From a virus (Monodnaviria; Loebvirae; Hofneiviricota; Faserviricetes; Tubulavirales; Inoviridae): a stretch of DNA of 11,692 nucleotides. The position numbers and the translations under genes were made by a program. Numbering within the stretch: position 1 is the stretch's first letter; every line of letters starts with the position of its first letter. Of this stretch, positions 411 through 11,426 are shown piece by piece. The stretch is from IMG/VR virus record IMGVR_UViG_2563366980_000001, one strand, 5' to 3'. The notes beneath the pieces were generated by a model. That model had not been told where the DNA came from, made no database searches, and saw only the letters and a list, made by a program, of their open reading frames with translations.

Positions 411-438
411 ATTTAACATAATATACATTATGCGCACC
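411..438 (-). other. dif: dif chromosome-dimer resolution site (XerC/XerD target); left boundary of integrated element
   Basis: Plus strand reads ATTTAACATAATATACATTATGCGCACC. Its reverse complement is GGTGCGCATAATGTATATTATGTTAAAT, an exact 28/28 match to the canonical E. coli dif (XerC arm, 6-bp central region, XerD arm). Confidence 0.9.
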
Positions 439-1309: not shown

Positions 1310-2554
1310 TCAGTTCAGGTTGTCCCGGAACAGTTCACCGCTCCTCGCGGCGCTGCGGGGCGTCGCCCTGCTCCGGTCAACCTTTCTGACCTGAAGCATC
1401 ACCATAATATCAGTCTTGTTGCTTTCACTGGTACGGGAACCGAAGAAGCTCCAGCCGGAACTGGCCTTACTGTCTTTCTGTTCAGCAAGGCCACCAAGTA
1501 AAATAATATCACCATCTGCAAGGCTGACTTCGGTTGTTACATCACGCTTGATAAGGGTTGGCGAGTTATTGACGCCGGTTTCAGTGGTCACAAAGTTGGA
1601 AAGCTGCTGCTGAATCTTGAGATCCATTGTCCGACTTTTGATTGATGGCGTTACGTTAAACAAAACACCGCTGGAACGATATTCAACGGATTGCGTGGTC
1701 GTATTGTTATTCACCGTAACACTGCCCAGTACTGGCACATCAGAGCCGACTGAAAAAGACGCTGAGGCATTATTTTTTACCCGCAGTCGTGGCGCACTGA
1801 CAACAGTAAAACGACTGTCGGTTTTAAGCAGATTGAAAATGGCATCAATGGAGCCGGTTCGAATATTGATAAAATTATCCAGTCCGGCAGCACCAACTGA
1901 AATATTGAATTTATCAGACAGAATTTTAGCCGCTAAAAGAATGCCGGAGCCGTCAGACTGCGAGGTCTGAACCTCAAAAACATAACCAGAAACAACCACT
2001 TCATCACTCATCGTATCCAGCGAAGTGACCAGTGTTTTCAGGATGGCGATATCCTCTTTCGTACCATAATAAACCAGAATATCACCGGTTCGATTGATGT
2101 AGTTGCTTGCCCCTGATGAACCTTTTAGCGAATCGTCAGAAATCACGGCTCCACTGTTATTGAAGGAGCCTGAAACGTAGCCGCCAAGAATATCAGACAG
2201 GTAGGCAACAGAACGGTACTGAGGCGTATAAGTCCATGTATAACGTGGCTTAACCGGCTCTTTCGGCGTATAGGGCGCGATAAAATCAACACCCTTTTTC
2301 GTCCATATTCGAATGTTCATATTGCCAAGATAACGGGTTACAAATTCCCGTTCATCAATATCAGGTGTTAACCTGAATGTAATCATTCGTTCATCATTAA
2401 CAAGCTGTGGATCTAGCATATACGGGACTTTAAGCACCTCACTATAAATAAGAGAAATAGCCTCCGGTAGCTTGACTTTATTTAATTCAAGCTCTGACCC
2501 TGCGAAAGCACATGAAGAAAATAGTAGCGTTAATGCGAGTAAAATCTTTTTCAT
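1310..2554 (-). CDS. pIV-like secretin (filamentous phage export channel), 414 aa
   Basis: N-terminal signal peptide MKKILLALTLLFSSCAFA. Size and position (last gene of the assembly module, directly after the pI-like gene with a TAATG stop/start overlap at 2554) match gene IV of Ff-type phages. SD-like GGGGAA lies upstream. C-terminal region is Gly/Ser/Val-rich as in secretin domains. Confidence 0.75.
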   Translation of the reverse strand: MKKILLALTLLFSSCAFAGSELELNKVKLPEAISLIYSEVLKVPYMLDPQLVNDERMITFRLTPDIDEREFVTRYLGNMNIRIWTKKGVDFIAPYTPKEPVKPRYTWTYTPQYRSVAYLSDILGGYVSGSFNNSGAVISDDSLKGSSGASNYINRTGDILVYYGTKEDIAILKTLVTSLDTMSDEVVVSGYVFEVQTSQSDGSGILLAAKILSDKFNISVGAAGLDNFINIRTGSIDAIFNLLKTDSRFTVVSAPRLRVKNNASASFSVGSDVPVLGSVTVNNNTTTQSVEYRSSGVLFNVTPSIKSRTMDLKIQQQLSNFVTTETGVNNSPTLIKRDVTTEVSLADGDIILLGGLAEQKDSKASSGWSFFGSRTSESNKTDIMVMLQVRKVDRSRATPRSAARSGELFRDNLN

Positions 2555-3579
2555 TATTTTTTCCCCGTATAAAGCGTCACACGCTCACCATCAATAATTC
2601 CGCTCATCAACATCCCTTTGTAATTAAAACTGGATGCAGGAACGGCACGCAAAACACCGGCACCGTTAACAAGAATCACAAACGCCCTGCCTTCACTGGT
2701 CATTCTCCCTGATATACGCCACTCGGTTGAAAGTGGCGGTTCAGCTGGTTCTGAGGGAGTATCTGGTGCTGGAGTAGCAGCGGAAGAACGAAACATGGCC
2801 GCATCACGTACATCTGTTGTAGCCAAATCTGGCGAGGGATCGCTTCGGCCAAACGTGCTGAAAAATGAGTAAATCAGCCAGCCTGACCCGATAAACATCA
2901 ATGGAAAAAGCACAAGAAAGAACCTGACTTTGCCAGAATTCCAGATGCTCTGGCGTTTATCTGTCTGCTTTTCATTACCGTTATTTCCTTCATAGCTTTT
3001 ATAAAGTTCAAAAATATCAGGGTTATATTTATTGCGATAACTGGTGACGAGGTTGCTTTTATAGATTTTGTGGCCTGAATATACGTCAATGCAGTAATGA
3101 TTATTCAGGCCCAACGCTTTCAGCTTGCGCATCCGGTAAGTTGTTTCTATTTTGTCTTTCAGAAAGCGAGCAATATTAGAAAGTGACTGATTTACAATAA
3201 CCAAATCACAGCTAATACCCGTTTCAGGGTGCGTAAAATGACGATGTTCAGCAATAAATGATTTCTTCTCAGCCGTCATATCCTTATCGCTACCGAAGAT
3301 TCTCCATGCTTCATCAATAACAATTAAATCACCAAACTGGCAAAAGCTCCCTTCCCCACCTTTAAAAGGAAAGAAATCTGTTTTAAGCACATCATCATTA
3401 TCCACAACAATAATTTCTCCCGTTGCATCAGGATAACGTTCGGTGATTTTATCTTTTTGTAAACCATAAATGTTCGTCACAACTCTCCGGCCGCTGGTAA
3501 ATGCAGGAATAATGACATTGCAAACGGCTTCATAACTTTTTCCTGAGCCGGGTATGCCAATATATGCAGAAATAGCCAT
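2554..3579 (-). CDS. pI / Zot-like phage assembly NTPase, 341 aa
   Basis: N-terminal Walker A motif GIPGSGKS at residues 8-15 (MAISAYIGIPGSGKSYEAV), typical of gene I and Zot proteins. Internal hydrophobic segment FFLVLFPLMFIGSGWLIYSFF consistent with the single transmembrane helix of pI. SD-like GGGTGAG upstream of ATG. Confidence 0.85.
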   Translation of the reverse strand: MAISAYIGIPGSGKSYEAVCNVIIPAFTSGRRVVTNIYGLQKDKITERYPDATGEIIVVDNDDVLKTDFFPFKGGEGSFCQFGDLIVIDEAWRIFGSDKDMTAEKKSFIAEHRHFTHPETGISCDLVIVNQSLSNIARFLKDKIETTYRMRKLKALGLNNHYCIDVYSGHKIYKSNLVTSYRNKYNPDIFELYKSYEGNNGNEKQTDKRQSIWNSGKVRFFLVLFPLMFIGSGWLIYSFFSTFGRSDPSPDLATTDVRDAAMFRSSAATPAPDTPSEPAEPPLSTEWRISGRMTSEGRAFVILVNGAGVLRAVPASSFNYKGMLMSGIIDGERVTLYTGKK

Positions 3580-3882: not shown

Positions 3883-5595
3883 TTAGGCACTCAGAATAAT
3901 ACGGAGCGCAACAAATCCCCATATAATCAGAAATATGGTTTCTACGGCGCCTCTGTTCTGCTCAATTAACGGACAATGGGAGTCAATTCTGTACTGGTGA
4001 TTAAACACGCTGAATTCAACAACGGGGCAGGATGCTGAACGAGAGCCGATGTTAAATTCGTTTGTAAAAGGCAACAAGTTAATAATTGGCGTTAAAATAT
4101 CTCTTGCCGTTGGCGTTTCTTCAAGCTCAGGCTCTTTTACACCGGGATCTTCTCCCAAAGCTATATTGCCATTATTTCCAGTGTCAGACCCTGAGTTGTT
4201 ATTAATGGTAATATCAATATTGACGTCAGCCCCTGCACTGTCAGATACAGGTGAAAGCATATCTAATAACGTTGGAGATAGCCTAAGTTCCGACATCGCA
4301 GAAGTTACTTCAGCCGGTGAAACCTCTTTAAACGGTAAGCCGTTATAATCGGCATTAACGGCAGCTTCAGACCACAGCTCGTTAATCATGTCGGCAAGAA
4401 GTGCTGGCGATACACTAACACTATCAAGATACTCCAGATAATCAATCATGGACTCAATATTTCCGGCCTCCAGTACTTCCGTCATGGCTTTATATTTGGT
4501 ATTGGTCCAGATAGTAAGCTCACTCTTTTCATCAATATCTTTTGCGGTGTAATCCTCTTTTTCAGGAACGGCGCAAATCGTCGAATATCCACCATTTGAC
4601 TGATTAGTCGTTTTACAAGGCGTGTTGTGATACTGATATTGCTTGCCTGCTGTTAAATAAGCAACGCTGTAATACATGGGAAGCCCTGCTACATTTTCAT
4701 ACATGGGAATACCTGCGGGAAATGAAGATGCGGACGGGTTGCTATACAAGTGTGTAATCTCAGGTATTTCATAAAATGAGGAAGGATAAGTAAACTTATA
4801 ATTATGTTCAGTAAAGGATACATCTCCATTACTGTTGACAACTTTATTCGTCACAGTGCGTTCAAAATTCGTTAGTGTTTCAGTATAAGTACGCGAGTTA
4901 TAGTCATTAAGATAATTTCTGGCAATTTCAGTTGGATTATCACCATAGTAATAAATTAGCTCTTTCGAATCCTGATAATAATAAAGCGCATTATCTGGCG
5001 TGGAATATCCTGTTTCAACACCTACAACTGGAGAACCCGCATCCACATTATTACGACTAACATGAAGGATTACCGGACTTAATTCCTGTGGTTCAAAATT
5101 AACGGTTATCGTCTTACTTTCACCACTTTGACCACTGTACGTTACTTCATATAAATTATCGGAAATCTTTTTACCGTTAGTCATTACCATTACCGAGCCG
5201 TCAGATGAACTCAAAGAAGACGGAACAAAAGATGATACAGCAGCAGCAATACCCGCCCACGTTGCAACACCGCTCATTTTGTATGATGAGGCAGCAGGCA
5301 AGTATTCGGCAGCATTAGCCGCAGCGCGGCCAACAAAAACACGGGTTGCTGTAAGCTGTGATGCCGTATAAATCGCATCATTGGCAGCAAAGCGACGAAC
5401 AAGCACCCGGCCAACGACTTTAGGAATAACAGCCCGCGCAGCCACTGCTGCAATTGCTGGTACAAATGAATATGAATATCGGGGAAAGGAAACCCAGAGA
5501 AAGGAAAAAATAAAGGAATAAACCGTCAGCCTCTTAGCCCAAGAATAACGACATAAGCTGAGACGATCCCCCATAAAAGGGAACCCAATTTCCAT
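3883..5595 (-). CDS. pIII-like adsorption / minor coat protein, 570 aa (start uncertain)
   Basis: Largest ORF of the structural module, directly after the major coat gene and its terminator. Tyr/Asn/Ser-rich central region, Gly/Ser/Asn linker-like stretches and a C-terminal hydrophobic anchor (ETIFLIIWGFVALRIILSA) as in pIII C-domains. GGAGA SD 7-9 nt upstream of ATG at 5595. The first ~106 residues are atypical, and a signal-peptide-like segment begins at the internal Met (codon 107, near 5277). Confidence 0.65.
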   Translation of the reverse strand: MEIGFPFMGDRLSLCRYSWAKRLTVYSFIFSFLWVSFPRYSYSFVPAIAAVAARAVIPKVVGRVLVRRFAANDAIYTASQLTATRVFVGRAAANAAEYLPAASSYKMSGVATWAGIAAAVSSFVPSSLSSSDGSVMVMTNGKKISDNLYEVTYSGQSGESKTITVNFEPQELSPVILHVSRNNVDAGSPVVGVETGYSTPDNALYYYQDSKELIYYYGDNPTEIARNYLNDYNSRTYTETLTNFERTVTNKVVNSNGDVSFTEHNYKFTYPSSFYEIPEITHLYSNPSASSFPAGIPMYENVAGLPMYYSVAYLTAGKQYQYHNTPCKTTNQSNGGYSTICAVPEKEDYTAKDIDEKSELTIWTNTKYKAMTEVLEAGNIESMIDYLEYLDSVSVSPALLADMINELWSEAAVNADYNGLPFKEVSPAEVTSAMSELRLSPTLLDMLSPVSDSAGADVNIDITINNNSGSDTGNNGNIALGEDPGVKEPELEETPTARDILTPIINLLPFTNEFNIGSRSASCPVVEFSVFNHQYRIDSHCPLIEQNRGAVETIFLIIWGFVALRIILSA

Positions 5596-5620
5596 AATTC
5601 AATCTCCATAATAACCTCAA

Positions 5621-5646
5621 GTAAAACGGGCGATATTGCATCGCCC
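5621..5646 (-). terminator. Rho-independent terminator after the major coat gene
   Basis: On the minus strand: GGGCGAT-GCAAT-ATCGCCC (7-bp perfect stem, 5-nt loop) followed by GTTTTAC. Lies 14 nt downstream of the coat gene stop, analogous to the strong terminator after gene VIII in Ff phages. Confidence 0.6.
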
Positions 5647-5659
5647 ATGAATAATGAAT

Positions 5660-5893
5660 TTATGCGGATTTAACGGTACGCAATACCCAGCGAACGCCAG
5701 CGACACCGGCATAAAGTGTTACCAGTGAAGCAGCAACGGCCATAATCGCAACCAGAACTGTACTGAAATCAATGCTGTTCGTCAGCGGCGATAAATCAAC
5801 ACCACTTGATGCCGCTCCTTCTGCAGCGAAAGTCGCGCCAGAAACAGCCATTAATGCAGGTACAGCCAGAAAACTAACGATTTTTTTAAACAT
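5660..5893 (-). CDS. pVIII-like major coat protein precursor, 77 aa
   Basis: Classic architecture: signal peptide MFKKIVSFLAVPALMAVSGATFA, acidic N-terminus of the mature part (AEGAASSGVDLS), hydrophobic core, basic C-terminus (RWVLRTVKSA). GGAGA SD upstream. Confidence 0.8.
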   Translation of the reverse strand: MFKKIVSFLAVPALMAVSGATFAAEGAASSGVDLSPLTNSIDFSTVLVAIMAVAASLVTLYAGVAGVRWVLRTVKSA

Positions 5894-5927
5894 AACTCTA
5901 TCTCCATTACATTTTAAAGGTTCGCAT

Positions 5928-6179
5928 TCAAGCAGTACGAACCATCTTTATTACCTGTCCCACACCTACAGAAAAAAGCCAGAGCAGCAGGACAGAGCCA
6001 AAACCTAATGTCCAGTAATTTCCCATTGCAGAATAATCAATTTGATGAAATGGTTCAGAACGTACCATTATTGCCTGACATTCTTTTGCATTGTTCGCAT
6101 TACATAAATAACCTTCAATACGGTAACCATTTTCAGGAATATGATTATCAAACTGAATATCGAAACCTGATGTATCCAT
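5928..6179 (-). CDS. small hypothetical protein with C-terminal transmembrane helix (possible minor coat protein), 83 aa
   Basis: Tightly packed between the ssDNA-binding and coat genes (start 6179, upstream stop 6182-6184). AAGG SD-like upstream. C-terminal hydrophobic helix WTLGFGSVLLLWLFSVGVGQVI. Function inferred from position only. Confidence 0.45.
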   Translation of the reverse strand: MDTSGFDIQFDNHIPENGYRIEGYLCNANNAKECQAIMVRSEPFHQIDYSAMGNYWTLGFGSVLLLWLFSVGVGQVIKMVRTA

Positions 6180-6181
6180 AA

Positions 6182-6499
6182 TCAGCCTTTTATTTCAGTA
6201 ATGCCGCCATCTGATGAAATGTTATAAGTTACTCCTTCCCTCCCCTCCATTGACCAGACGCGAACATATACAGGTATCTGGACTAACTTACCGATAAAAT
6301 TATTTGCCTGATTCATTACACCGGCATTAACAAGAGCCTGAGATACACGAATAATAATCTGGTCTTGCTTAGTGCCACCAAAACCATCAGGAATCTCTAA
6401 GCCAACACCAATTTCATTATAGTATCCCTGACCATTGACCTTATTACGCTGGCGAGCACCAAGCATTTTACCTTTTACAAAAAGACCATAATTAGACAT
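6182..6499 (-). CDS. pV-like ssDNA-binding protein (putative), 105 aa
   Basis: Immediately downstream of the replication gene with a strong SD (AAAGGAGAGTGATAT-ATG). Small Gly-rich basic protein at the position occupied by gene V or RstB in filamentous phages. Functional call is positional. Confidence 0.55.
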   Translation of the reverse strand: MSNYGLFVKGKMLGARQRNKVNGQGYYNEIGVGLEIPDGFGGTKQDQIIIRVSQALVNAGVMNQANNFIGKLVQIPVYVRVWSMEGREGVTYNISSDGGITEIKG

Positions 6500-6510
6500 A
6501 TCACTCTCCT

Positions 6511-7563
6511 TTAATGCCAGTTACTGGCATGTGAAATACGGTTATAATCGAAAATTAAACCTTTCTCATAAACCCATGATGGAATTTTGGCTGGTTTGGC
6601 TTCAAGAGTACGAACCAACGGAACAACGTTATTAGAATCCGGTGACTCACAATAAAAGTTAATATCTATTCCGAAAGAAAGTAATTCTTTACGGTGTCGG
6701 TAGAATGTAGGTTTCGGTAACATCTCTTTCATGTTCGCGCCCTGCTTCCACAATAAATATGTAGACTGTATTTTTCTTGGGAGATTAATTATTTTTTCAT
6801 CAGTTAATATGGTATTTTGATTCATTTCTATTCTCCCTACATAGTCAGAGAATAATTTATTGGGCGTCTCAATATTCCAGCTATTACCAAGCGTAAGATT
6901 CAAATCAATTAATTCAGTTGTTCTTAATGTTAATTCAATGCGTAATTTATCTTTTGACCAGTCCAGTAAACCAGCTTTAACGAATTCGTCTGCCATCTGG
7001 TGCCCTTTTTTGCCAGATGTATGCTCATCATATTTTGAATAAAATTTCAGGCTCCAACGACGGGAGTTTTTCCCTAAGTAAACAGTGCCACCTTTACCAC
7101 AGGCGCGACCGTGGCGAGTTTTAGCTTTAAATTCTGCGGCATATAACCATGCGCGGACATTTTCTAATGTTGACAATGAATACATGTAATTGATATCGAT
7201 GCGCGAGATCTTAAATTGCCCTTCCATGACCTGCCGATAGGATGGTAGATCATGAGGAATATGCAGTAATGCCAATATTCTGGCGTAAGCTGTTAACACC
7301 AACCCTTGCAAATCGTCGGAACCGATAACAGAGTGACCTTGCAAAAACTTTGATGGATTACCGTCAATGTAGAGATGTGTTGCCCGACCTTCACCATCAG
7401 ATCCAACAGACCTTACTTTCATTGTGGACTCATGCGAACCGCGAACTGTCAACCGTTTTACTGTTTCCCACTCCACTGCACCGTCAGCATTGACGCTGAC
7501 GACACTACCAGCCGGTAACGGTCGGTGTGTGCAAGGCAGGATTCCGGTAAACCAGTCGATCAT
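6511..7563 (-). CDS. Rolling-circle replication initiation protein (pII / RstA-like), 350 aa
   Basis: First gene of the minus-strand phage operon, divergent from the repressor gene. Size and position match filamentous-phage replication initiators. Family assignment from gene order and overall character, not a verified motif. Confidence 0.7.
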   Translation of the reverse strand: MIDWFTGILPCTHRPLPAGSVVSVNADGAVEWETVKRLTVRGSHESTMKVRSVGSDGEGRATHLYIDGNPSKFLQGHSVIGSDDLQGLVLTAYARILALLHIPHDLPSYRQVMEGQFKISRIDINYMYSLSTLENVRAWLYAAEFKAKTRHGRACGKGGTVYLGKNSRRWSLKFYSKYDEHTSGKKGHQMADEFVKAGLLDWSKDKLRIELTLRTTELIDLNLTLGNSWNIETPNKLFSDYVGRIEMNQNTILTDEKIINLPRKIQSTYLLWKQGANMKEMLPKPTFYRHRKELLSFGIDINFYCESPDSNNVVPLVRTLEAKPAKIPSWVYEKGLIFDYNRISHASNWH

Positions 7564-7734
7564 AAGTAGTCACACCCATCAAAATATGTGTCAATAGTCA
7601 TTTGTGAGCAGATTGAATGGTCACAATGTAATATGCTCAGATCTGACAGTCAATACATTTGCAATGTTTAAATTGTCAGAAATGAGCATCAAATCTAACT
7701 ATTGAAAAACCACTGTTAAGATGGAGCCAAGTAG
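7564..7734. promoter_or_regulatory. Divergent promoter/operator region between replication gene and repressor gene
   Basis: 171-bp AT-rich intergenic region between divergent start codons. Contains the perfect palindrome TCAGATCTGA (7637-7646), TGTGA-N12-TCACA (7604-7625), direct repeats of GTCAATA (7590-7596, 7649-7655) and repeated TGAGCA/TGCTCA half-sites (7605-7610, 7633-7638, 7683-7688). GGAG SD at 7723-7726 precedes the repressor ATG. Confidence 0.55.
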
Positions 7735-8181
7735 ATGGGCAACAATGAGCATGAAGTTATGGCGGACAAACAGAGAGCAGAACGTATCAAAAAGGTAATT
7801 CTGGAACACTCGACTTATGAAGAACTGGCCGAGAAGACTGGCATTAGCGTGAGTACGCTGGTCAGGATAGCGTCCGGCAAAACTGAACCTAAATTCAGTG
7901 ACATCATTCAGATAGCTAAAATTACTGGTGCAGACTTAAACACCTTAGCTTATGGCTATGCTCTTGATGTTAAAGAAGAAGCTACCGAGCGGAAGCTAAT
8001 CACTTCTGCGGATGGATATACTGATGAAGAAACCACTAACGCACATAATTTCATCGTGTGGAACATCAGGACACTGGAAAAACAAGATATTCTGGCACTC
8101 GCAAGGCAGGTTTCTGCCTTAAGTTCATACACTTACAGTACTAAAATGTTTATGAAAAAAGCGGTGTCTGGAGAAGAGTAA
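7735..8181 (+). CDS. XRE-family helix-turn-helix transcriptional regulator (putative prophage repressor), 148 aa
   Basis: HTH signature TYEELAEKTGISVSTLVRIASGK near the N-terminus. Divergent from the replication gene, as rstR is from rstA in CTXphi-type phages. SD GGAG 8 nt upstream. An alternative start at the internal Met (codon 9) is possible. Confidence 0.85.
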   Translation: MGNNEHEVMADKQRAERIKKVILEHSTYEELAEKTGISVSTLVRIASGKTEPKFSDIIQIAKITGADLNTLAYGYALDVKEEATERKLITSADGYTDEETTNAHNFIVWNIRTLEKQDILALARQVSALSSYTYSTKMFMKKAVSGEE

Positions 8182-8192
8182 AAGGATTAACA

Positions 8193-8245
8193 GTCTCAGG
8201 AATGAGACAAACGTGCAGTATTACCAACACTGCACGTTCTTTATT
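8193..8245 (+). terminator. Tandem hairpins after the repressor gene, the second a rho-independent terminator
   Basis: GTCTCA-GGAA-TGAGAC (8193-8208), then ACGTGCAGT-ATTACCAAC-ACTGCACGT (9-bp perfect stem, 8211-8237) followed by TCTTTATT. Confidence 0.6.
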
Positions 8246-8280
8246 GCGCGAATTTTGAACAGTGAAAAAGGATCAAAAGG

Positions 8281-8703
8281 ATGAGTAGAAATAACGAAAC
8301 AAGCGGCGTTGAACTGGTTGTCGTGGGCATATTTGCTTTCTGTCTGGCAGTTGTTGCCTGGCTAATGAAAACTTTCGATGTTGAATGGCAAACAGCTCTG
8401 GAAACTGCGCCTAGCCTGATAGTCTGGCTGCTTGTTGTTGGGGCGGGGATCTTTTTCGGGATCAAAATGGAAACAGGTCTTGTTCGCTGGGGTGCTCCAC
8501 TGGCGATTGCCCTTCTGATTCCGGTATTCAAACCAATCCTTAAGGAAGCTGCCGGAGTACGTGAAACGGGTGGATTGGTTTTCGATGATATGGTTTCGTG
8601 GTATGGAACTGGCTGGGGAATGTCGTTGATGTTTTTCGGAATTCTTATCATCGGATACGGGCTGCTTTATTGGTGGCACAGAAGAAATTCATATCACTGG
8701 TAA
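8281..8703 (+). CDS. hypothetical integral membrane protein with four predicted TM helices, 140 aa (cargo gene 1)
   Basis: Four hydrophobic segments of about 18-20 residues (VELVVVGIFAFCLAVVAWL, LIVWLLVVGAGIFFGI, WGAPLAIALLIPVF, MSLMFFGILIIGYGLLYWW). AAAAAGGA/AAAGG SD-like sequence just upstream of ATG. Not part of the canonical filamentous-phage gene set. No family recognised. Confidence 0.6.
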   Translation: MSRNNETSGVELVVVGIFAFCLAVVAWLMKTFDVEWQTALETAPSLIVWLLVVGAGIFFGIKMETGLVRWGAPLAIALLIPVFKPILKEAAGVRETGGLVFDDMVSWYGTGWGMSLMFFGILIIGYGLLYWWHRRNSYHW

Positions 8704-8707
8704 TTTC

Positions 8708-8729
8708 AAACCGTGGGAAACCACGGTTT
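8708..8729 (+). other. Perfect stem-loop with GAAA tetraloop between the two cargo genes
   Basis: AAACCGTGG-GAAA-CCACGGTTT (9-bp perfect stem) starting 5 nt after the stop of cargo gene 1. No downstream U-tract, so not a canonical intrinsic terminator. Confidence 0.45.
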
Positions 8730-8795
8730 AATAAGAGGAAACTGAACCCTATCAGTTCCACAATGGAAAAATTGTGCTGCAAACAACTTACTTAA

Positions 8796-9920
8796 TTGGA
8801 TATCAACCAAATGAATGCACTTCTAGGGAAAATTGCAGGAGCAGTAGCAACCTTCTTTGTTGCTCTTATTTTGAATAAATTTTTTTCAACATTTCGTATT
8901 AGACAACTTTACTTAGCATATGAACATATATTAGAGCACACAACACAAAGCATAACTGGATATACAGTCATGTTCACAGTTACGAACAAAGGAAAAGAGA
9001 AAGAAAAAAACGTAACCATTACAATACCAAAAAGCAAGTCGATATCTCTTATCTCAGCTAATAATGTTAGCATTGAATGTAAAGATAACAAAATAATCAT
9101 TGACCGCATCCTGCCAAAGGAAAATATTACTTTGATTGTTTTGGTTAAAAATGGTGGCGTTCTATCGAAGTCTAACTTACCAATATTGAAATCTGAAGAT
9201 GCTAATGGAAAGTGTTATGACAGCATAAAGAAAATACCACCTAGCCTTGGCCCTGCTTTCTTCAGCTTTTCATTGTTTATTGCATTTTTAGTATTAATGG
9301 GAGGAGCCATATACAAAGGTTACGATCCCTTTGAAGTAACATATACGCAATATTTCAAAATGAGATTCACTCCTTTCTATGATAGAGGTTTTGAAAATAA
9401 TTCATTCCAAAATAACTCCCTTACAAAACAATATGATACATCAAAATCAGACTTCCCGATTGATCTAAAGAGTCTTAATGTGAAGGATGGGAAAATCGAG
9501 TATGTTTTCATTATTGATAATAAAACCAACTATAACCTTAGTGCGGACATGAAATTTATAGTTAGAGATGAAAACCAATATTATGATGAGTTGGGAAAAG
9601 TATTGAACATTAGGAATGACGCTGATAGACGTCAAGCTTTACACGAACTAAGAGATAAATATCATGTTGCTGAAGATACTACAGGTGCTACATATTCAAT
9701 AAGTGAATGGATTGATAAGGGACAAAGAAAAGAAATAAAAATGACTCGCCAGTTGTCGAAAGGCATCGATTATAAGGATCTCGGTGTTGATATAAGGATA
9801 AGGAATGATGCAAATGATGATAATTATTACGGCGACTATCAATTTAAACCGGAACGCTCAGCAATAGCTAAAAATAAATTGGATGCAGCAATTGCTACTC
9901 AACGTTTTCCGTTGAAATAG
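8796..9920 (+). CDS. hypothetical membrane-anchored protein, 374 aa, AT-rich (cargo gene 2)
   Basis: Long ORF in markedly AT-rich DNA with Lys/Asn/Ile/Asp-rich product. Predicted N-terminal TM helix (residues ~9-30) and a second hydrophobic helix (~152-172), a beta-rich region between them and a ~200-aa hydrophilic C-terminal domain. The first codon at 8796 is TTG; the first ATG is at 8811 (MNALLGK...). Neither has a strong SD. Followed by a strong terminator. No family recognised. Confidence 0.65.
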   Translation: MDINQMNALLGKIAGAVATFFVALILNKFFSTFRIRQLYLAYEHILEHTTQSITGYTVMFTVTNKGKEKEKNVTITIPKSKSISLISANNVSIECKDNKIIIDRILPKENITLIVLVKNGGVLSKSNLPILKSEDANGKCYDSIKKIPPSLGPAFFSFSLFIAFLVLMGGAIYKGYDPFEVTYTQYFKMRFTPFYDRGFENNSFQNNSLTKQYDTSKSDFPIDLKSLNVKDGKIEYVFIIDNKTNYNLSADMKFIVRDENQYYDELGKVLNIRNDADRRQALHELRDKYHVAEDTTGATYSISEWIDKGQRKEIKMTRQLSKGIDYKDLGVDIRIRNDANDDNYYGDYQFKPERSAIAKNKLDAAIATQRFPLK

Positions 9921-9959
9921 TTGAGATTTTTGGTTCGCACAATGACGTTATGCTAAAGA

Positions 9960-9995
9960 GGCCGCTGCGGGATTCGATTTTCGCAGCGGCCTTTT
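9960..9995 (+). terminator. Rho-independent terminator ending the cargo operon
   Basis: GGCCGCTGCG-(12-nt loop)-CGCAGCGGCC, a 10-bp perfect GC-rich stem (9960-9969 / 9982-9991) followed by TTTT (9992-9995). Begins 40 nt after the stop of the 374-aa ORF. Confidence 0.8.
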
Positions 9996-10025
9996 CAACA
10001 TAACGAGTCGTACATTATGCGCACC
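9993..10025 (-). other. dif-like hybrid attachment site (right prophage junction)
   Basis: Minus strand reads GGTGCGCATAA-TGTACGACTCG-TTATGTTGAAA. The XerC arm is 11/11 identical to dif, the spacer is 11 bp instead of 6, and the XerD-like arm matches TTATGTTAAAT at 9/11. Same orientation as the canonical dif at 411-438. About 78 bp from the hipA stop. Confidence 0.7.
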
Positions 10026-10103
10026 AACATAAACCAAGGGAGAATCCAGTCGTTGGCGGTTCATGATTGTTCTGCTCATTAACAACGACCAAAACCCCAT
10101 ATC

Positions 10104-11426
10104 TTACTTAATACCGTATTCTCGGCTTAACCGACCGTGCAACCTCAACACATTGGTTTCAACTGCCGTCACCACGTTCTCCGGAAAATCTGTCGGTAAT
10201 GAAGTCTTCACGTTATCCAGTGCTGCCGGAATCATTCTGGCAAAGTCACTCAGGATTTCATGCATCTGCACTTCCGGGAATTTCAGCACCTTTGCTGTCG
10301 CCAGAAAATGTCGCGGATAAATTTTATCGATTGCCGTTTTTTTGCCTTTGGATGCGTTAAGCCCCATTGCCAGTTTGAGATCGCTGATGTGTATTCCCGT
10401 ACCGCCAAGGACCGGAAATGCCGAAATGATGTCATAAAATGGTGTGAGCCGATAACTGCCGCCAGCCTGAATAAATACGGAGAAGTTTTTTGCATGGCCA
10501 TCTGTTGCGCCAATCAACCACTGGAAGACCTGAAACTTCATAAAATCATAGCGATCTTTCAGCGCCTCGCTGGACCCCATCAAAAAAGCCATAATTTGCG
10601 CGATACCGGGGCCTCCATCTGATTCATATTTCACCGATGAAGGTAAACCGAATGTCTGGCACATATCCTCCTGTGGCAAGCGAAGTAAAACCGTTCGCTC
10701 AGTATTCCAACGCCTGTCAAAACGTTTGACCGCTAACGCGCGCACCCTTCCCGCTTTAATGATTTCTGCGTCCGGAACATTCAACCCGAGTTCTTTCGCC
10801 AGCAGCAAACAGTAATACTCATTATCAACGCTTTGGCTAAGATCGAGCGTCGCATTGGGCTGTCTGATTTCGCCAATCGGCAATTTGATAATGTGCGTCG
10901 TTGGCGTTATTCCCTTCGGAATGCACCAGTCATTGCCTATTCTGAGCAGCGCAGTCTTCTCCTGTGCGCCAGCAACCGAGATGCGAAAGTCATTTTCTTC
11001 TCTAATCATGCCTAACGGGATATCTGCTTTATAAGCCGTTAATACTTCTTCAAGTCTGGCTTCAGTAAGCTTTTCCCATGCCATTATCGGACACATTACG
11101 GTTTCATCTTCGGGGATTAACGTCACGGCACCAACGCTGTCTCGCCCTATTTCTGACAATAAATCAAACGGTTGTCTGGATTTAGCATGATAACGTTTAA
11201 CGATCCGGTCACGTACAATCGGGCTATCGGGTAACAGGTTATCGAAGAAGTTAAATACGGCATCAGAGGTGATATTCCTCCTCTGCAATGGCAGCGAAAG
11301 TGACAACGGTCTGGCATAACGGCTGGCTAACCACTCAGGTGCATACTTAAAGGTGTGCGCGCCGTTGGCTAACTTCGTTAACTCGCCTACCCGCTGGTTG
11401 TTCATCCAAGTGACTAGTTTAGGCAT
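10104..11426 (-). CDS. hipA: HipA serine/threonine kinase toxin (type II TA system), 440 aa
   Basis: Translation from the ATG at 11426 (MPKLVTWMNNQRVGELTKLANGAHTFKYAPEWLASRYARPLSLSLPLQR...) is recognisably near-identical to E. coli HipA as I recall it. The start overlaps the hipB stop (ATGA). The ORF-track entry begins 19 codons further upstream in frame, but those codons overlap hipB. Confidence 0.95.
   Translation of the reverse strand: MPKLVTWMNNQRVGELTKLANGAHTFKYAPEWLASRYARPLSLSLPLQRRNITSDAVFNFFDNLLPDSPIVRDRIVKRYHAKSRQPFDLLSEIGRDSVGAVTLIPEDETVMCPIMAWEKLTEARLEEVLTAYKADIPLGMIREENDFRISVAGAQEKTALLRIGNDWCIPKGITPTTHIIKLPIGEIRQPNATLDLSQSVDNEYYCLLLAKELGLNVPDAEIIKAGRVRALAVKRFDRRWNTERTVLLRLPQEDMCQTFGLPSSVKYESDGGPGIAQIMAFLMGSSEALKDRYDFMKFQVFQWLIGATDGHAKNFSVFIQAGGSYRLTPFYDIISAFPVLGGTGIHISDLKLAMGLNASKGKKTAIDKIYPRHFLATAKVLKFPEVQMHEILSDFARMIPAALDNVKTSLPTDFPENVVTAVETNVLRLHGRLSREYGIK

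Follow-up and report, generated by a model that had tools for sequence, protein, structure and literature searches.

T4 Imm, HK97 gp15, and P22 SieA are membrane-located superinfection-exclusion proteins. In 2022, Rousset and colleagues reportedly showed by experiment that cassettes at hot-spots of P2-like phages and P4-like satellites have anti-phage activity. Pf4 encodes a further membrane superinfection-exclusion protein, PfsE (PMC8764522). Filamentous and tailless prophages of Vibrio carry an accessory hot-spot of mostly unannotated genes that is enriched for defense and toxin-antitoxin systems (ISME J 2024, PMC11630473). CUS-1, a marker of the highly virulent O18:K1:H7 clone and a sister of the Yersinia pestis phage YpfPhi, has att-proximal ORFs ('orf1/orf1a') that differ from those of YpfPhi (YPO2271/YPO2272). 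In the passage of Derbise & Carniel 2014 that relays Gonzalez et al. 2002 (PMC4266046), these ORFs are given neither homologues nor a function, and the genes of this variable end have been listed in that way since 2002.

We analyzed a stretch of 11,692 nucleotides (the window) that is 100% identical over its whole length to Escherichia coli UTI89/NU14 and contains the dif-integrated filamentous prophage CUS-1, adjoining hipBA. Our data indicate that the gene at 8811-9920 is an exchangeable cargo gene of CUS-1 in a single hot-spot slot, located between the phage regulatory and four-transmembrane (TM) genes and the dif-like attP, and that related prophages carry other AT-rich cassettes there. 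By position, the gene presumably corresponds to 'orf1' or 'orf1a'. It is not puvA, which the literature describes as a pIII-like virion gene (PMC4266046). The features discussed below are as follows.

411 to 438, minus strand: perfect copy of the 28-bp E. coli dif, marking the opposite end of the prophage (0 mismatches; not seen in any of 200 shuffles)
7735 to 8181, plus strand: HTH_3 repressor-like gene (Pfam HTH_3, 1.6e-9; PHROG 3557)
8281 to 8703, plus strand: conserved four-TM gene of the phage backbone, 140 aa (PHROG 4174; homology to other lysogens extends up to 8703)
8704 to 9929, plus strand: variable cargo slot in CUS-like prophages (breakpoints from blastn alignment with M19 and the TUM14759 episome; ends of five cassette types compared)
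8708 to 8729, plus strand: stem-loop AAACCGTGG-GAAA-CCACGGTTT at the cassette start (RNA fold)
8762 to 8795, plus strand: 10-codon mini-ORF, judged not functional
8811 to 9920, plus strand: cargo coding sequence for a 369-aa two-pass membrane protein (RefSeq WP_001555908.1; PHROG 17621; dN/dS; AF2)
9932 to 9959, plus strand: dif-like site GGTTCGCACAATGACGTTATGCTAAAGA, conserved, first arm of the attP pair
9960 to 9995, plus strand: G+C-rich hairpin GGCCGCTGCG...CGCAGCGGCC followed by TTTT, between the two dif-like sites (sequence; single-stranded DNA fold)
9998 to 10025, minus strand: hybrid dif site (GGTGCGCATAATGTACG...) where prophage meets chromosome, beside hipA (sequence; episome junction)

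We found that the slot has sharp edges, at 8703/8704 and 9929/9930. Its left boundary is the stop codon of the four-TM gene, and its right boundary is the dif-like site, which follows each type of cassette and is also kept in other inovirus backbones; everything between the two is swapped in other lysogens. Of 5426 complete E. coli genomes, 99 carry the phage core (at least 80% of the prophage core, mostly at 99% identity or more) and 10 carry the cargo gene. Four other cassettes were found at the same slot, and the resulting census (type A, 10 genomes; B, 17; C, 24; D, 28; E, about 24) sums to roughly the 99. One alternative cassette encodes a nuclease of the DpnII/MboI type (Pfam E = 7e-59), for which PADLOC returned the defense-candidate models Aga_Helical-REase (1e-34) and PDC-S35. 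Cassettes D and E encode small TM proteins that might be truncated relatives; hhalign aligns them with the cargo family over 27-32 columns only ('N-x-G-K-x-x-A-K-N-V-x-I-x-F-P', probability 36-60%). A circular episome of 9565 bp also exists, joining 10027 to 425, and both prophages and episome occur with other or frameshifted cargo, including a B-type allele that is frameshifted in one episome. The original prediction had asked for a comparison with related prophages; among these near-identical elements, the gene is variably rather than universally present, and it forms a discrete insertion whose flanks are conserved and whose place is taken by other contents elsewhere.

We next consider composition, for which the original prediction had described by eye an ORF much more AT-rich than its neighbors with a Lys/Asn/Ile/Asp-rich product. 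The ORF at 8796-9920 has a GC content of 33.3% and a GC3 of 28.8%, compared to a GC content of 42.1% in the phage core (1310-8703), 47.0% in the adjacent four-TM gene, and 47.7% in hipA. Sliding-window analysis placed the lowest-GC 1125-bp window (33.0%; all windows: mean 41.9%, sd 3.4) at 8756, i.e., on the cargo gene. GC3 for the coding sequence from ATG 8811 is 104/369 (28.2%), compared to 891/2323 (38.4%) in ten phage core genes (Fisher p = 1.6e-4), the ATA share of Ile codons is 43% against 15% in the core, and the rare-codon load is doubled (100 vs 50 per 1000 codons). The product is indeed rich in K, I, L, D, and N. The gene is therefore neither universally conserved nor undistinguished in composition, the two outcomes on which the original prediction had staked its rejection.

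That prediction had further proposed a 'moron' obtained from a lower-GC donor. Separate acquisition agrees with presence in 10 of 99 genomes, sharp boundaries, and four alternative cassettes, but a lower-GC donor is not supported. Recoding the cargo protein with phage core codon usage gives 36.8% GC, and of the 8.8-point gap approximately 5.3 points (about 60%) are attributable to amino-acid composition and approximately 3.5 to synonymous choice. Every cassette in the slot has 31-36% GC, every homologue examined lies 10-19 GC points under its surroundings, including Pseudomonas-type backgrounds of 53-58% GC, and synonymous sites are saturated between the alleles of different phage backbones, although these alleles are AT-rich to the same degree. 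Since all homologues are AT-rich relative to their hosts, no low-GC donor is needed for the composition. Our data indicate that low GC is a family-wide trait, produced by a K/N/I/D-rich protein with AT-biased codons, and not the trace of a particular low-GC donor; because slot cassettes, homologues, and saturated alleles are all AT-rich, it looks like a standing property of the mobile gene pool and of protein composition. A recent import from a lower-GC organism, carried as a passenger with no particular role in the phage, would account for 33% against 42% GC and for the rare codons. We consider it very unlikely, since homologues are AT-rich whatever the host GC, the other slot cassettes share the bias, and selection on the gene is strongly purifying (dN/dS 0.05-0.09). 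Saturation of synonymous sites between enterobacterial inovirus alleles argues for long residence of the family in this pool, and searches of 5.8 billion and 1.84 billion sequences turned up no low-GC organism with a homologue, most matches being unnamed and metagenomic.

The start codon had been described as ambiguous. TTG 8796 and ATG 8811 are both present, as is the mini-ORF running from ATG 8762 to TAA 8795, but the sequence evidence points to ATG 8811 as the true start: it is called by RefSeq, the PHROG 17621 profile match begins at residue 6 of the TTG ORF, and in a Citrobacter homologue the TTG equivalent is out of frame. On these grounds, the TTG start was rejected. The proposed role of the mini-ORF as a leader peptide or in translational coupling was also rejected. 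It lacks a Shine-Dalgarno sequence, its stop lies 15 nt upstream of the real ATG, and it is not kept in homologous cassettes. In the nearest allele (ZYB62, 96% identical), it is lost by an ATG to GTG change and a TGC to TGA change at codon 6, while the main ORF has a dN/dS of 0.05.

Our data indicate that the cargo gene is a real gene under strong purifying selection, with a dN/dS of 0.048 relative to the ZYB62 allele (25 synonymous against 5 non-synonymous changes); a second pair gives 0.09. A decaying ORF or annotation artifact might be suspected from the missing functional annotation, the weak Shine-Dalgarno sequence of the cargo gene, and the frameshifted B-type allele. This reading is scarcely credible, since it is already contradicted by the dN/dS of 0.048, full-length conservation at 24-73% identity across many taxa, and nine residues that are invariant in 123 family sequences, among them R31, N59, G61, E65, R99, S128, G133, and N237; the confident fold prediction also speaks against it. 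The stem-loop at 8708-8729 lies upstream of the gene and is the first hairpin of a triple-hairpin element of approximately 55 nt, which in other inoviruses stands ahead of cargo genes and is common to four related loci (L013, L005, L009, and L020). Neither the window nor any of three related loci gave an Rfam match. A search of the plus strand from 8181 to 8810 revealed no sigma-70-like promoter. Downstream, the GC hairpin with its TTTT run (9960-9995) may act as the terminator of the cargo transcript.

The AF2 model of the 369-aa protein (pLDDT 91.5, pTM 0.67) has the following layout.

Residues 2 to 28: TM1
Residues 33 to 136: beta-sandwich
Residues 147 to 168: TM2
Residues 194 to 345: second beta-sandwich, with a helical hairpin at 254 to 283
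Residues 351 to 364: C-terminal helix

Both TM helices are conserved across the cargo family. Lys and Arg residues average 5.5 beside the TM1-TM2 loop compared to 1.8 on the other side, with a higher count in 112 of 123 members. These data, a crude hydropathy and positive-inside count, predict an inner-membrane protein in which the Ig-like beta-sandwich between the helices is cytoplasmic and the second beta-sandwich is periplasmic. The protein is also predicted to have no catalytic domain. It matches PHROG 17621, a phage family of unknown function, over its full length (E = 6e-200, residues 6-365 against profile positions 1-363 of 363), while Pfam and NCBIfam gave it no match and yielded nothing of note for relatives either. 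Compared to DUF11/CARDB-type and CBM3-type beta-sandwich modules, it scores under the Pfam threshold (DUF11, PF01345, 14.8 bits against a gathering cut-off of 24.6), with weak matches in 4 of 31 relatives. No solved structure with the order TM-sandwich-TM-sandwich was found. The sole matches in a sequence-profile search of the PDB, to a NEAT domain at E = 0.05, were set aside as chance. PADLOC-DB v2 (5027 models) returned no match for the cargo protein, and a search with 73 family members (31 + 42) returned a single match at chance level (E = 0.0098).

A search of 1.84 billion representatives assigned 189 clusters to the cargo family at E <= 1e-3, including relatives of approximately 300 aa that are homologous over their full length (hhalign E = 5e-41). 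Two other inovirus backbones carry copies of 61% amino-acid identity in the same slot between repressor and attP, and in the inovirus backbones L005 and L013 the cargo gene directly follows the equivalent of the HTH_3 repressor-like gene. A 73%-identity copy lies in an inovirus remnant beside a dif-like site, and a fourth inovirus carries a 32%-identical member. Other relatives are located at tailed prophage ends, on an ICE-like element, on IncF plasmids, and in islands. Those at prophage ends adjoin the integrase or the lysis cassette, and a distant relative lies at the integrase end of a P2-like prophage. The relative on the ICE-like element is located beside SMC_N/AAA_21 ATPase, HEPN, and RES genes, one on a tailed-phage contig directly follows an AAA_15/AAA_21 ATPase, and those on IncF plasmids adjoin a DUF1778-GNAT toxin-antitoxin pair. 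A scan of genome contigs returned two loci only, and neither DNA nor protein comparison matched any INPHARED phage genome. Literature searches for the accessions of the gene, its PHROG identifier, DUF6953, and ECs_2282 found nothing, and a UTI89 expression-library paper does not mention the cargo locus.

This distribution bears on whether the gene serves the element alone, through membrane addiction or stabilization, control of co-resident tandem prophages, or virion extrusion, with no protection of the host against unrelated phages. Its position on the repressor side, directly after the repressor in L005 and L013, would fit such a role, as would the frequent tandem and poly-lysogeny of CUS-like prophages (median 2, up to 16 places per genome; a tandem copy in SF-173). 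Inovirus accessory toxin-antitoxin systems are also reported to mediate polylysogeny (PMC12328805). We regard this role as distinctly unlikely, however: unrelated cassettes replace the gene with no loss of the prophage, a frameshifted allele occurs in an existing episomal phage genome, no antitoxin-like partner travels with the gene, and the other elements in which relatives reside, such as tailed prophages, plasmids, and islands, differ greatly in life cycle.

The best explanation of the locus as a whole, which we favor tentatively and at slightly under even confidence, is that this exchangeable cargo of CUS-1 encodes a two-TM inner-membrane protein made by the lysogen as an envelope exclusion or defense factor. 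The cargo protein probably acts in phage-versus-phage conflict. The context for this is circumstantial: the nuclease cassette in the slot, the neighbors of the relatives, and the defense-enriched hot-spots of filamentous Vibrio prophages (PMC11630473) point to a conflict role, the association with defense genes being drawn from about a dozen hand-inspected contexts without background statistics. The gene, on the same strand as the repressor-like gene, would be expressed in the lysogen from that strand, and its product would sit at the envelope as a single-gene exclusion or defense factor against incoming phages or other mobile elements. Exclusion might proceed through binding of an invader component or of a host entry factor. 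By analogy with the superinfection-exclusion membrane proteins, we consider a block of entry to be the most likely mechanism.

Several observations count against a defense function, namely the lack of a PADLOC, Pfam, or NCBIfam match, the failure to find a sigma-70-like promoter, the weak Shine-Dalgarno sequence, a literature that ties CUS-1 and YpfPhi to in vivo fitness instead of phage resistance (PMC4266046), and possible silencing by H-NS, which could well act on an AT-rich gene in E. coli.

We also asked whether the cargo could instead change the envelope or behavior of the lysogen in an animal host (colonization, serum or stress resistance), by analogy with att-adjacent lysogenic-conversion genes such as ctxAB. 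CUS-1 and YpfPhi have been linked to in vivo fitness and not to phage resistance (PMC4266046), but it is to puvA, the pIII-like gene, and not to the cargo gene that the fitness defect published for CUS-1 maps (PMC4266046). Most carriers of the UTI89-type cassette are human extraintestinal isolates (e.g., UTI89 and NU14), although the allele is also present in a bovine isolate, and relatives in environmental Pseudomonas, Massilia, Variovorax, and metagenomes argue against a role specific to an animal host. The att-proximal position is that of classical conversion genes, and the predicted Ig-like and CBM-like folds would be binding modules; the predicted inner-membrane anchor, with neither signal peptide nor outer-membrane module, would in turn preclude surface exposure. 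Taken together, a host-fitness or virulence function appears unlikely.

Returning to an envelope exclusion or defense factor, it is possible, though doubtful, that this function extends to the whole family. The at least 189 clusters at 50% identity would then form an unrecognized mobile family of single-gene membrane exclusion or defense factors (TM, cytoplasmic Ig-like, TM, periplasmic Ig-like) carried by inoviruses, tailed prophages, ICEs, and plasmids. The slot beside dif in E. coli inoviruses would be a defense hot-spot, with cassettes reassorted between backbones via the shared attP or tandem arrays. Our data establish the variable end of CUS-1 as a five-way cargo hot-spot and place the cassette at 8811-9920 in a conserved membrane-protein family that is under purifying selection and common to very different mobile elements. 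An ORF that had been an orphan thereby becomes a candidate, open to testing, for a new exclusion or defense function at the envelope. If no phage-related phenotype exists, the gene remains an ordinary accessory gene of unknown function. Cassettes of approximately 1.2 kb with fixed flanks also offer a small, tractable system for cargo exchange in integrase-less, Xer-dependent phages.

Among known systems, CUS-1 resembles CTXphi in its integration, which is read here from sequence: two inverted dif-like sites able to pair as single-stranded DNA (fold z = -6.3) form the attP with a hairpin between them, the host dif is regenerated perfectly at the other end, as in CTXphi-type IMEX, and the cargo adjoins att. 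This likeness is a trait of the phage backbone and not of the function of the cargo gene. Like the Vibrio hot-spot, the slot is one defined variable locus in small dif-integrating filamentous prophages, but it differs in its E. coli host, its phage lineage, the lack of a defense-model match for the cargo gene, and its direct junction with the dif-like attP. PfsE, Imm, gp15, and SieA are prophage-encoded, non-catalytic, inner-membrane proteins made by the lysogen that block entry, as is proposed for the cargo protein; they share neither sequence nor fold similarity with it (neither an annotated family in PHROG or Pfam nor a fold match connects them) and are mostly much smaller. The P2/P4 defense hot-spots resemble the slot in that near-identical prophages carry interchangeable AT-rich cassettes of one or two genes at fixed positions, although their activity reportedly comes from experiments, whereas a defense role of the CUS-1 cassette is predicted from sequence. 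The nearest precedent is orf1/orf1a, in the same prophage and at the same genome end as the cargo gene. Beyond that published account, our data delimit the slot to the base, count five cassettes in E. coli, assign the gene to a family of 189 clusters on many kinds of mobile element, and provide a confident fold and a predicted topology.

The UTI89 and NU14 E. coli chromosomes are 100% identical to window positions 8700-10000 and to the phage core (1310-8703), and the prophage is CUS-1 of the literature, a dif-integrated filamentous phage. The Yersinia pestis phage YpfPhi is closely related to CUS-1 (PMC4266046). Gene layout was taken from the UTI89 RefSeq annotation and Pfam.

Layout of the prophage and its ends
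411-438, minus strand: perfect 28-bp E. coli dif, the other prophage end
1310-2554, minus strand: secretin (RefSeq UTI89/Pfam)
2554-3579, minus strand: Zot/pI (RefSeq UTI89/Pfam)
Minus strand: DUF2523 (pVI-like) gene (RefSeq UTI89/Pfam)
3883-5595, minus strand: ssDNA-binding protein, coat proteins and pIII-like gene (RefSeq UTI89/Pfam)
6511-7563, minus strand: G2P-type replication protein (RefSeq UTI89/Pfam)
7735-8181, plus strand: HTH_3 repressor-like gene, 148 aa
8281-8703, plus strand: four-TM gene, 140 aa
Beyond the four-TM gene, plus strand: the AT-rich gene, here called the cargo gene
9932-9959, plus strand: dif-like site, right end
9960-9995: G+C-rich hairpin and TTTT, between both right-end dif-like sites
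9998-10025, minus strand: hybrid dif, inverted, right end
After the cargo gene, minus strand: hipA and hipB

Strain TUM14759 carries the same phage as an episome: its circular 'plasmid' of 9565 bp (NZ_CP128883.1), deposited as untypable, is a CUS-like filamentous phage genome in episomal form. The episome junction, which joins window position 10027 to 425, fixes the prophage ends. As single-stranded DNA, positions 9925-10035 fold into a forked hairpin that pairs both dif-like sites (dG -27.9 kcal/mol, z = -6.3). The layout, with inverted dif-like sites flanking a GC hairpin and a perfect dif at the far end, is similar to CTXphi-type attP(+). The 9960-9995 hairpin and TTTT could have a second role in terminating the cargo transcript.

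In blastn comparisons of the window with two other lysogens, identity extends to 8703, the stop of the four-TM gene, and resumes at 9930, two bases ahead of the dif-like site, with unrelated DNA between. We found five cassette types in this slot, that of the window included, whose ends agree with 8703 and 9930 to within a few bases.

Cassettes of the slot, counted among 5426 complete E. coli genomes
Cassette A, 10 genomes: cargo gene of the window
Cassette B, 17 genomes: divergent member of the cargo-gene family, frameshifted in the TUM14759 episome
Cassette C, 24 genomes: 264-aa protein with a DpnII/MboI-type nuclease domain (Pfam PF18742, 7e-59; PADLOC Aga_Helical-REase, 1e-34; PDC-S35 match) and a DUF6953 protein
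Cassette D, 28 genomes: ECs_2282 CxxC zinc-binding protein and a 159-aa N-terminally anchored protein
Cassette E, approximately 24 genomes at an identity of at least 95%: 155-aa anchored protein and a 123-aa protein

Together these cassettes account for approximately the 99 core-carrying genomes, and every one has a GC content of 31-36%. The sharp slot, its five alternative contents and the presence of the gene in 10 of the 99 core-carrying genomes support the original prediction of a separately acquired 'moron'; it is close to certain that gene 8811-9920 is exchangeable cargo in a defined hot-spot. CUS-1 and YpfPhi also differ at this end, where the ORFs have been described as lacking homologues or known function (PMC4266046).

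In the TUM14759 episome the B-type gene is split by a frameshift into 8716-8931 and 9006-253, and other genomes carry an additional base at that point. Cassette E has many more diverged copies, including plasmid ones; for one example (L020, 10395-11392), copies of 80-90% identity occur in approximately 80 additional E. coli records, and 74 of the places are plasmid-borne, which indicates that cassette E also circulates outside inoviruses. The small anchored proteins of cassette D (strain SF-173, L019 10698-11177) and cassette E (L020 10506-10973) have in common with the cargo family the motif N-(K/R)-G-K-x-x-A-K-N-(I/V)-x-I-x-F-P. This short strand-loop motif reads NKGKEKEKNVTITIP in the cargo gene product, and the hhalign probability against the D and E proteins is just 36-60%, which makes common ancestry tentative at best.

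The compositional break that had been judged by eye is real and sharp. ORF 8796-9920 has a GC content of 33.3%, versus 42.1% for the phage core (ten genes with their spacers), 47.0% for the four-TM gene and 47.7% for hipA. When every 1125-bp window is scanned, the minimum (33.0%) is reached by the one that begins at 8756. GC3 is 28.2% (104/369) versus 38.4% (891/2323) in the core (Fisher p = 1.6e-4) and 51.9% in hipBA; ATA makes up 43% of Ile codons in the cargo gene and 15% in the core, and codons that are rare in E. coli occur at double the rate (100 versus 50 per 1000). Since re-encoding the cargo protein with phage core codon preferences gives a predicted GC content of 36.8%, approximately 5.3 of the 8.8 GC points stem from a K/I/L/D/N-rich protein and approximately 3.5 from synonymous choice.

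The start codon had been left ambiguous between TTG 8796 and ATG 8811. RefSeq begins the coding sequence at ATG 8811, the PHROG 17621 profile alignment begins at residue 6 of the TTG ORF, all homologues begin with MNALL or MSALL, and in the Citrobacter homologue the counterpart of the TTG is out of frame and reads into TGA; therefore the start is ATG 8811, and TTG 8796 is ruled out. Leader-peptide regulation or translational coupling by the mini-ORF at 8762-8795 did not hold. Its stop lies 15 nt ahead of ATG 8811, it has no Shine-Dalgarno sequence, and upstream short ORFs in other cassettes are unrelated in sequence or absent. In the 96%-identical allele of strain ZYB62 the mini-ORF is broken (ATG to GTG, codon 6 TGA), while the main gene differs by 25 synonymous and 5 non-synonymous changes.

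Eight clusters were matched when 5.8 billion proteins were searched by word index; a full profile search with HMMER, covering 1.84 billion representatives, returned 189 clusters at E <= 1e-3, of which 32 reached E <= 1e-30. The numerous relatives of approximately 300 aa are homologous end to end (hhalign probability 100%, E = 5e-41); the one element they are missing is a helical hairpin set into the second domain. No relative has a name beyond 'hypothetical' or a Pfam domain.

Genomic contexts of the family
Second E. coli inovirus backbone: directly after an HTH repressor, directly before the same dif-like attP; 61% identity
Citrobacter inovirus backbone: directly after an HTH repressor, directly before the same dif-like attP; 61% identity
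Inovirus remnant (L009/L010, 10001-11110): gene, upstream hairpin element, and first dif-like site with hairpin (half attP); 73% identity
Fourth inovirus, with Zot and TspB-like pIII: 32% identity
P2-like prophage: integrase end
Pseudomonas prophage: end, past the lysis genes
Massilia prophage: integrase and lysis cassette on either side
Pseudomonas ICE-like element (L023): directly after a 965-aa SMC_N/AAA_21 ATPase (4910-7807), between two MvaT genes, near HEPN and RES
Tailed-phage contig (L032): directly after a 730-aa AAA_15/AAA_21 ATPase (6437-8629) and a 296-aa ORF
Conjugative IncF Enterobacter plasmids: adjoining a DUF1778-GNAT TA pair
Genomic islands

The remnant copy has no inovirus genes nearby and looks like a cargo gene kept after phage decay. 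The MvaT genes flanking the Pseudomonas member are H-NS-like, and a large SMC_N/AAA_21-type ATPase gene lies just 5' of the family member in two unrelated contexts (L023 and L032).

Every copy examined is lower in GC than the DNA around it, by 10-19 points (e.g., 39% versus 58%, and 40% versus 53-57%). Together with the low GC of all cassettes, this leaves a specific lower-GC donor, as originally proposed, neither needed nor indicated. Alleles from different enterobacterial inoviruses have reached saturation at synonymous sites, and dN/dS is 0.048 and 0.09 in the only two pairs for which it was estimable. With the uniformly low GC, these data indicate an old and functional family that has stayed AT-rich throughout, and we give very little weight to a non-functional gene.

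The product is a predicted conserved membrane protein of binding-type modules. An AlphaFold2 model from a 123-sequence alignment (mean pLDDT 91.5, pTM 0.67) has the following predicted elements.

Predicted elements of the cargo protein
Residues 2-28: helix
Residues 33-136: beta-sandwich of seven to eight strands
Residues 147-168: helix, then two short helices
Residues 194-345: second sandwich, with helical hairpin 254-283, then a C-terminal helix

Hydrophobic helices at approximately 2-28 and 147-168 are kept family-wide. Lys and Arg beside the TM1-TM2 loop average 5.5 versus 1.8 on the other side and are higher in 112 of the 123 members; by a crude positive-inside calculation, the N-terminus and C-terminal domain would be periplasmic and the first sandwich cytoplasmic. 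The invariant residues of the alignment are R31, L33, N59, G61, E65, R99, S128, G133 and N237, and all except N237 fall in the juxtamembrane motif F-x-R-x-R-Q-L-Y or in first-sandwich loops.

Mobile elements of many kinds carry the family, as a rule at their variable ends and sometimes next to defence-type genes. We tentatively propose, at slightly less than an even chance, that the protein would act at the inner membrane: it would bind a component of the invader, or a host factor used for entry, and in this way exclude or abort phages or other elements entering the cell. In every context examined the gene is without a travelling partner. A role in host fitness is unlikely, and selfish maintenance of the element is a shade less probable again.

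The cargo is probably transcribed with the lysogeny-side genes or just downstream of them. The repressor gene lies on the same strand, and a stem-loop (8708-8729) precedes the cargo gene, upstream of which no consensus promoter was found. Just past the repressor gene, at 8211-8245, a 9-bp stem (ACGTGCAGT/ACTGCACGT) with a 9-nt loop is followed by TCTTTATT; it looks like a terminator, passed over by the automated scan owing to its loop length, and if so transcription of the four-TM gene and cargo may depend on a separate promoter or on read-through. A triple-hairpin element of approximately 55 nt (CCGYGG-GAAA-CCRCGG, GTTCGGG...CCCGAAC and CCGC...GCGG) opens the cargo cassette in several inoviruses and cassette types (inovirus backbones L005 and L013, remnant L009, and cassette E at L020 10395-10450). 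The UTI89 cassette retains the first hairpin alone (8708-8729). The element matches no Rfam family; it could serve as a terminator, as a signal for packaging or for the origin, or as a landmark in recombination.

Where different inoviruses use the same dif for integration, their attP sequences are nearly identical and the prophages often lie in tandem; the phage core has a median of 2 and a maximum of 16 matching places per genome. CUS-like prophages lie in tandem at dif in SF-173 (L019, 1-2032 versus 8202-11177). We speculate that the cassette next to att could pass from one backbone to another when tandem arrays recombine or when replication runs across them; tandem CTX elements, which are known to give rise to hybrid genomes, offer a precedent. 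ZYB62 (locus L036) shares the four-TM gene and cargo, at an identity of 96% that starts from position 8180 of the window, but at 811-993 of L036 it has a 60-aa ORF in place of the UTI89 148-aa HTH repressor (window 7735-8181). The region is thus mosaic, and the differing ORF suggests the exchange of a regulatory or immunity module.

Our data make an uncharacterised protein family, widespread on mobile elements, directly testable. Filamentous Vibrio prophages contain an accessory hot-spot enriched in defence genes (PMC11630473), and the gene described here is a further, better-defined case of cargo in a prophage accessory hot-spot.
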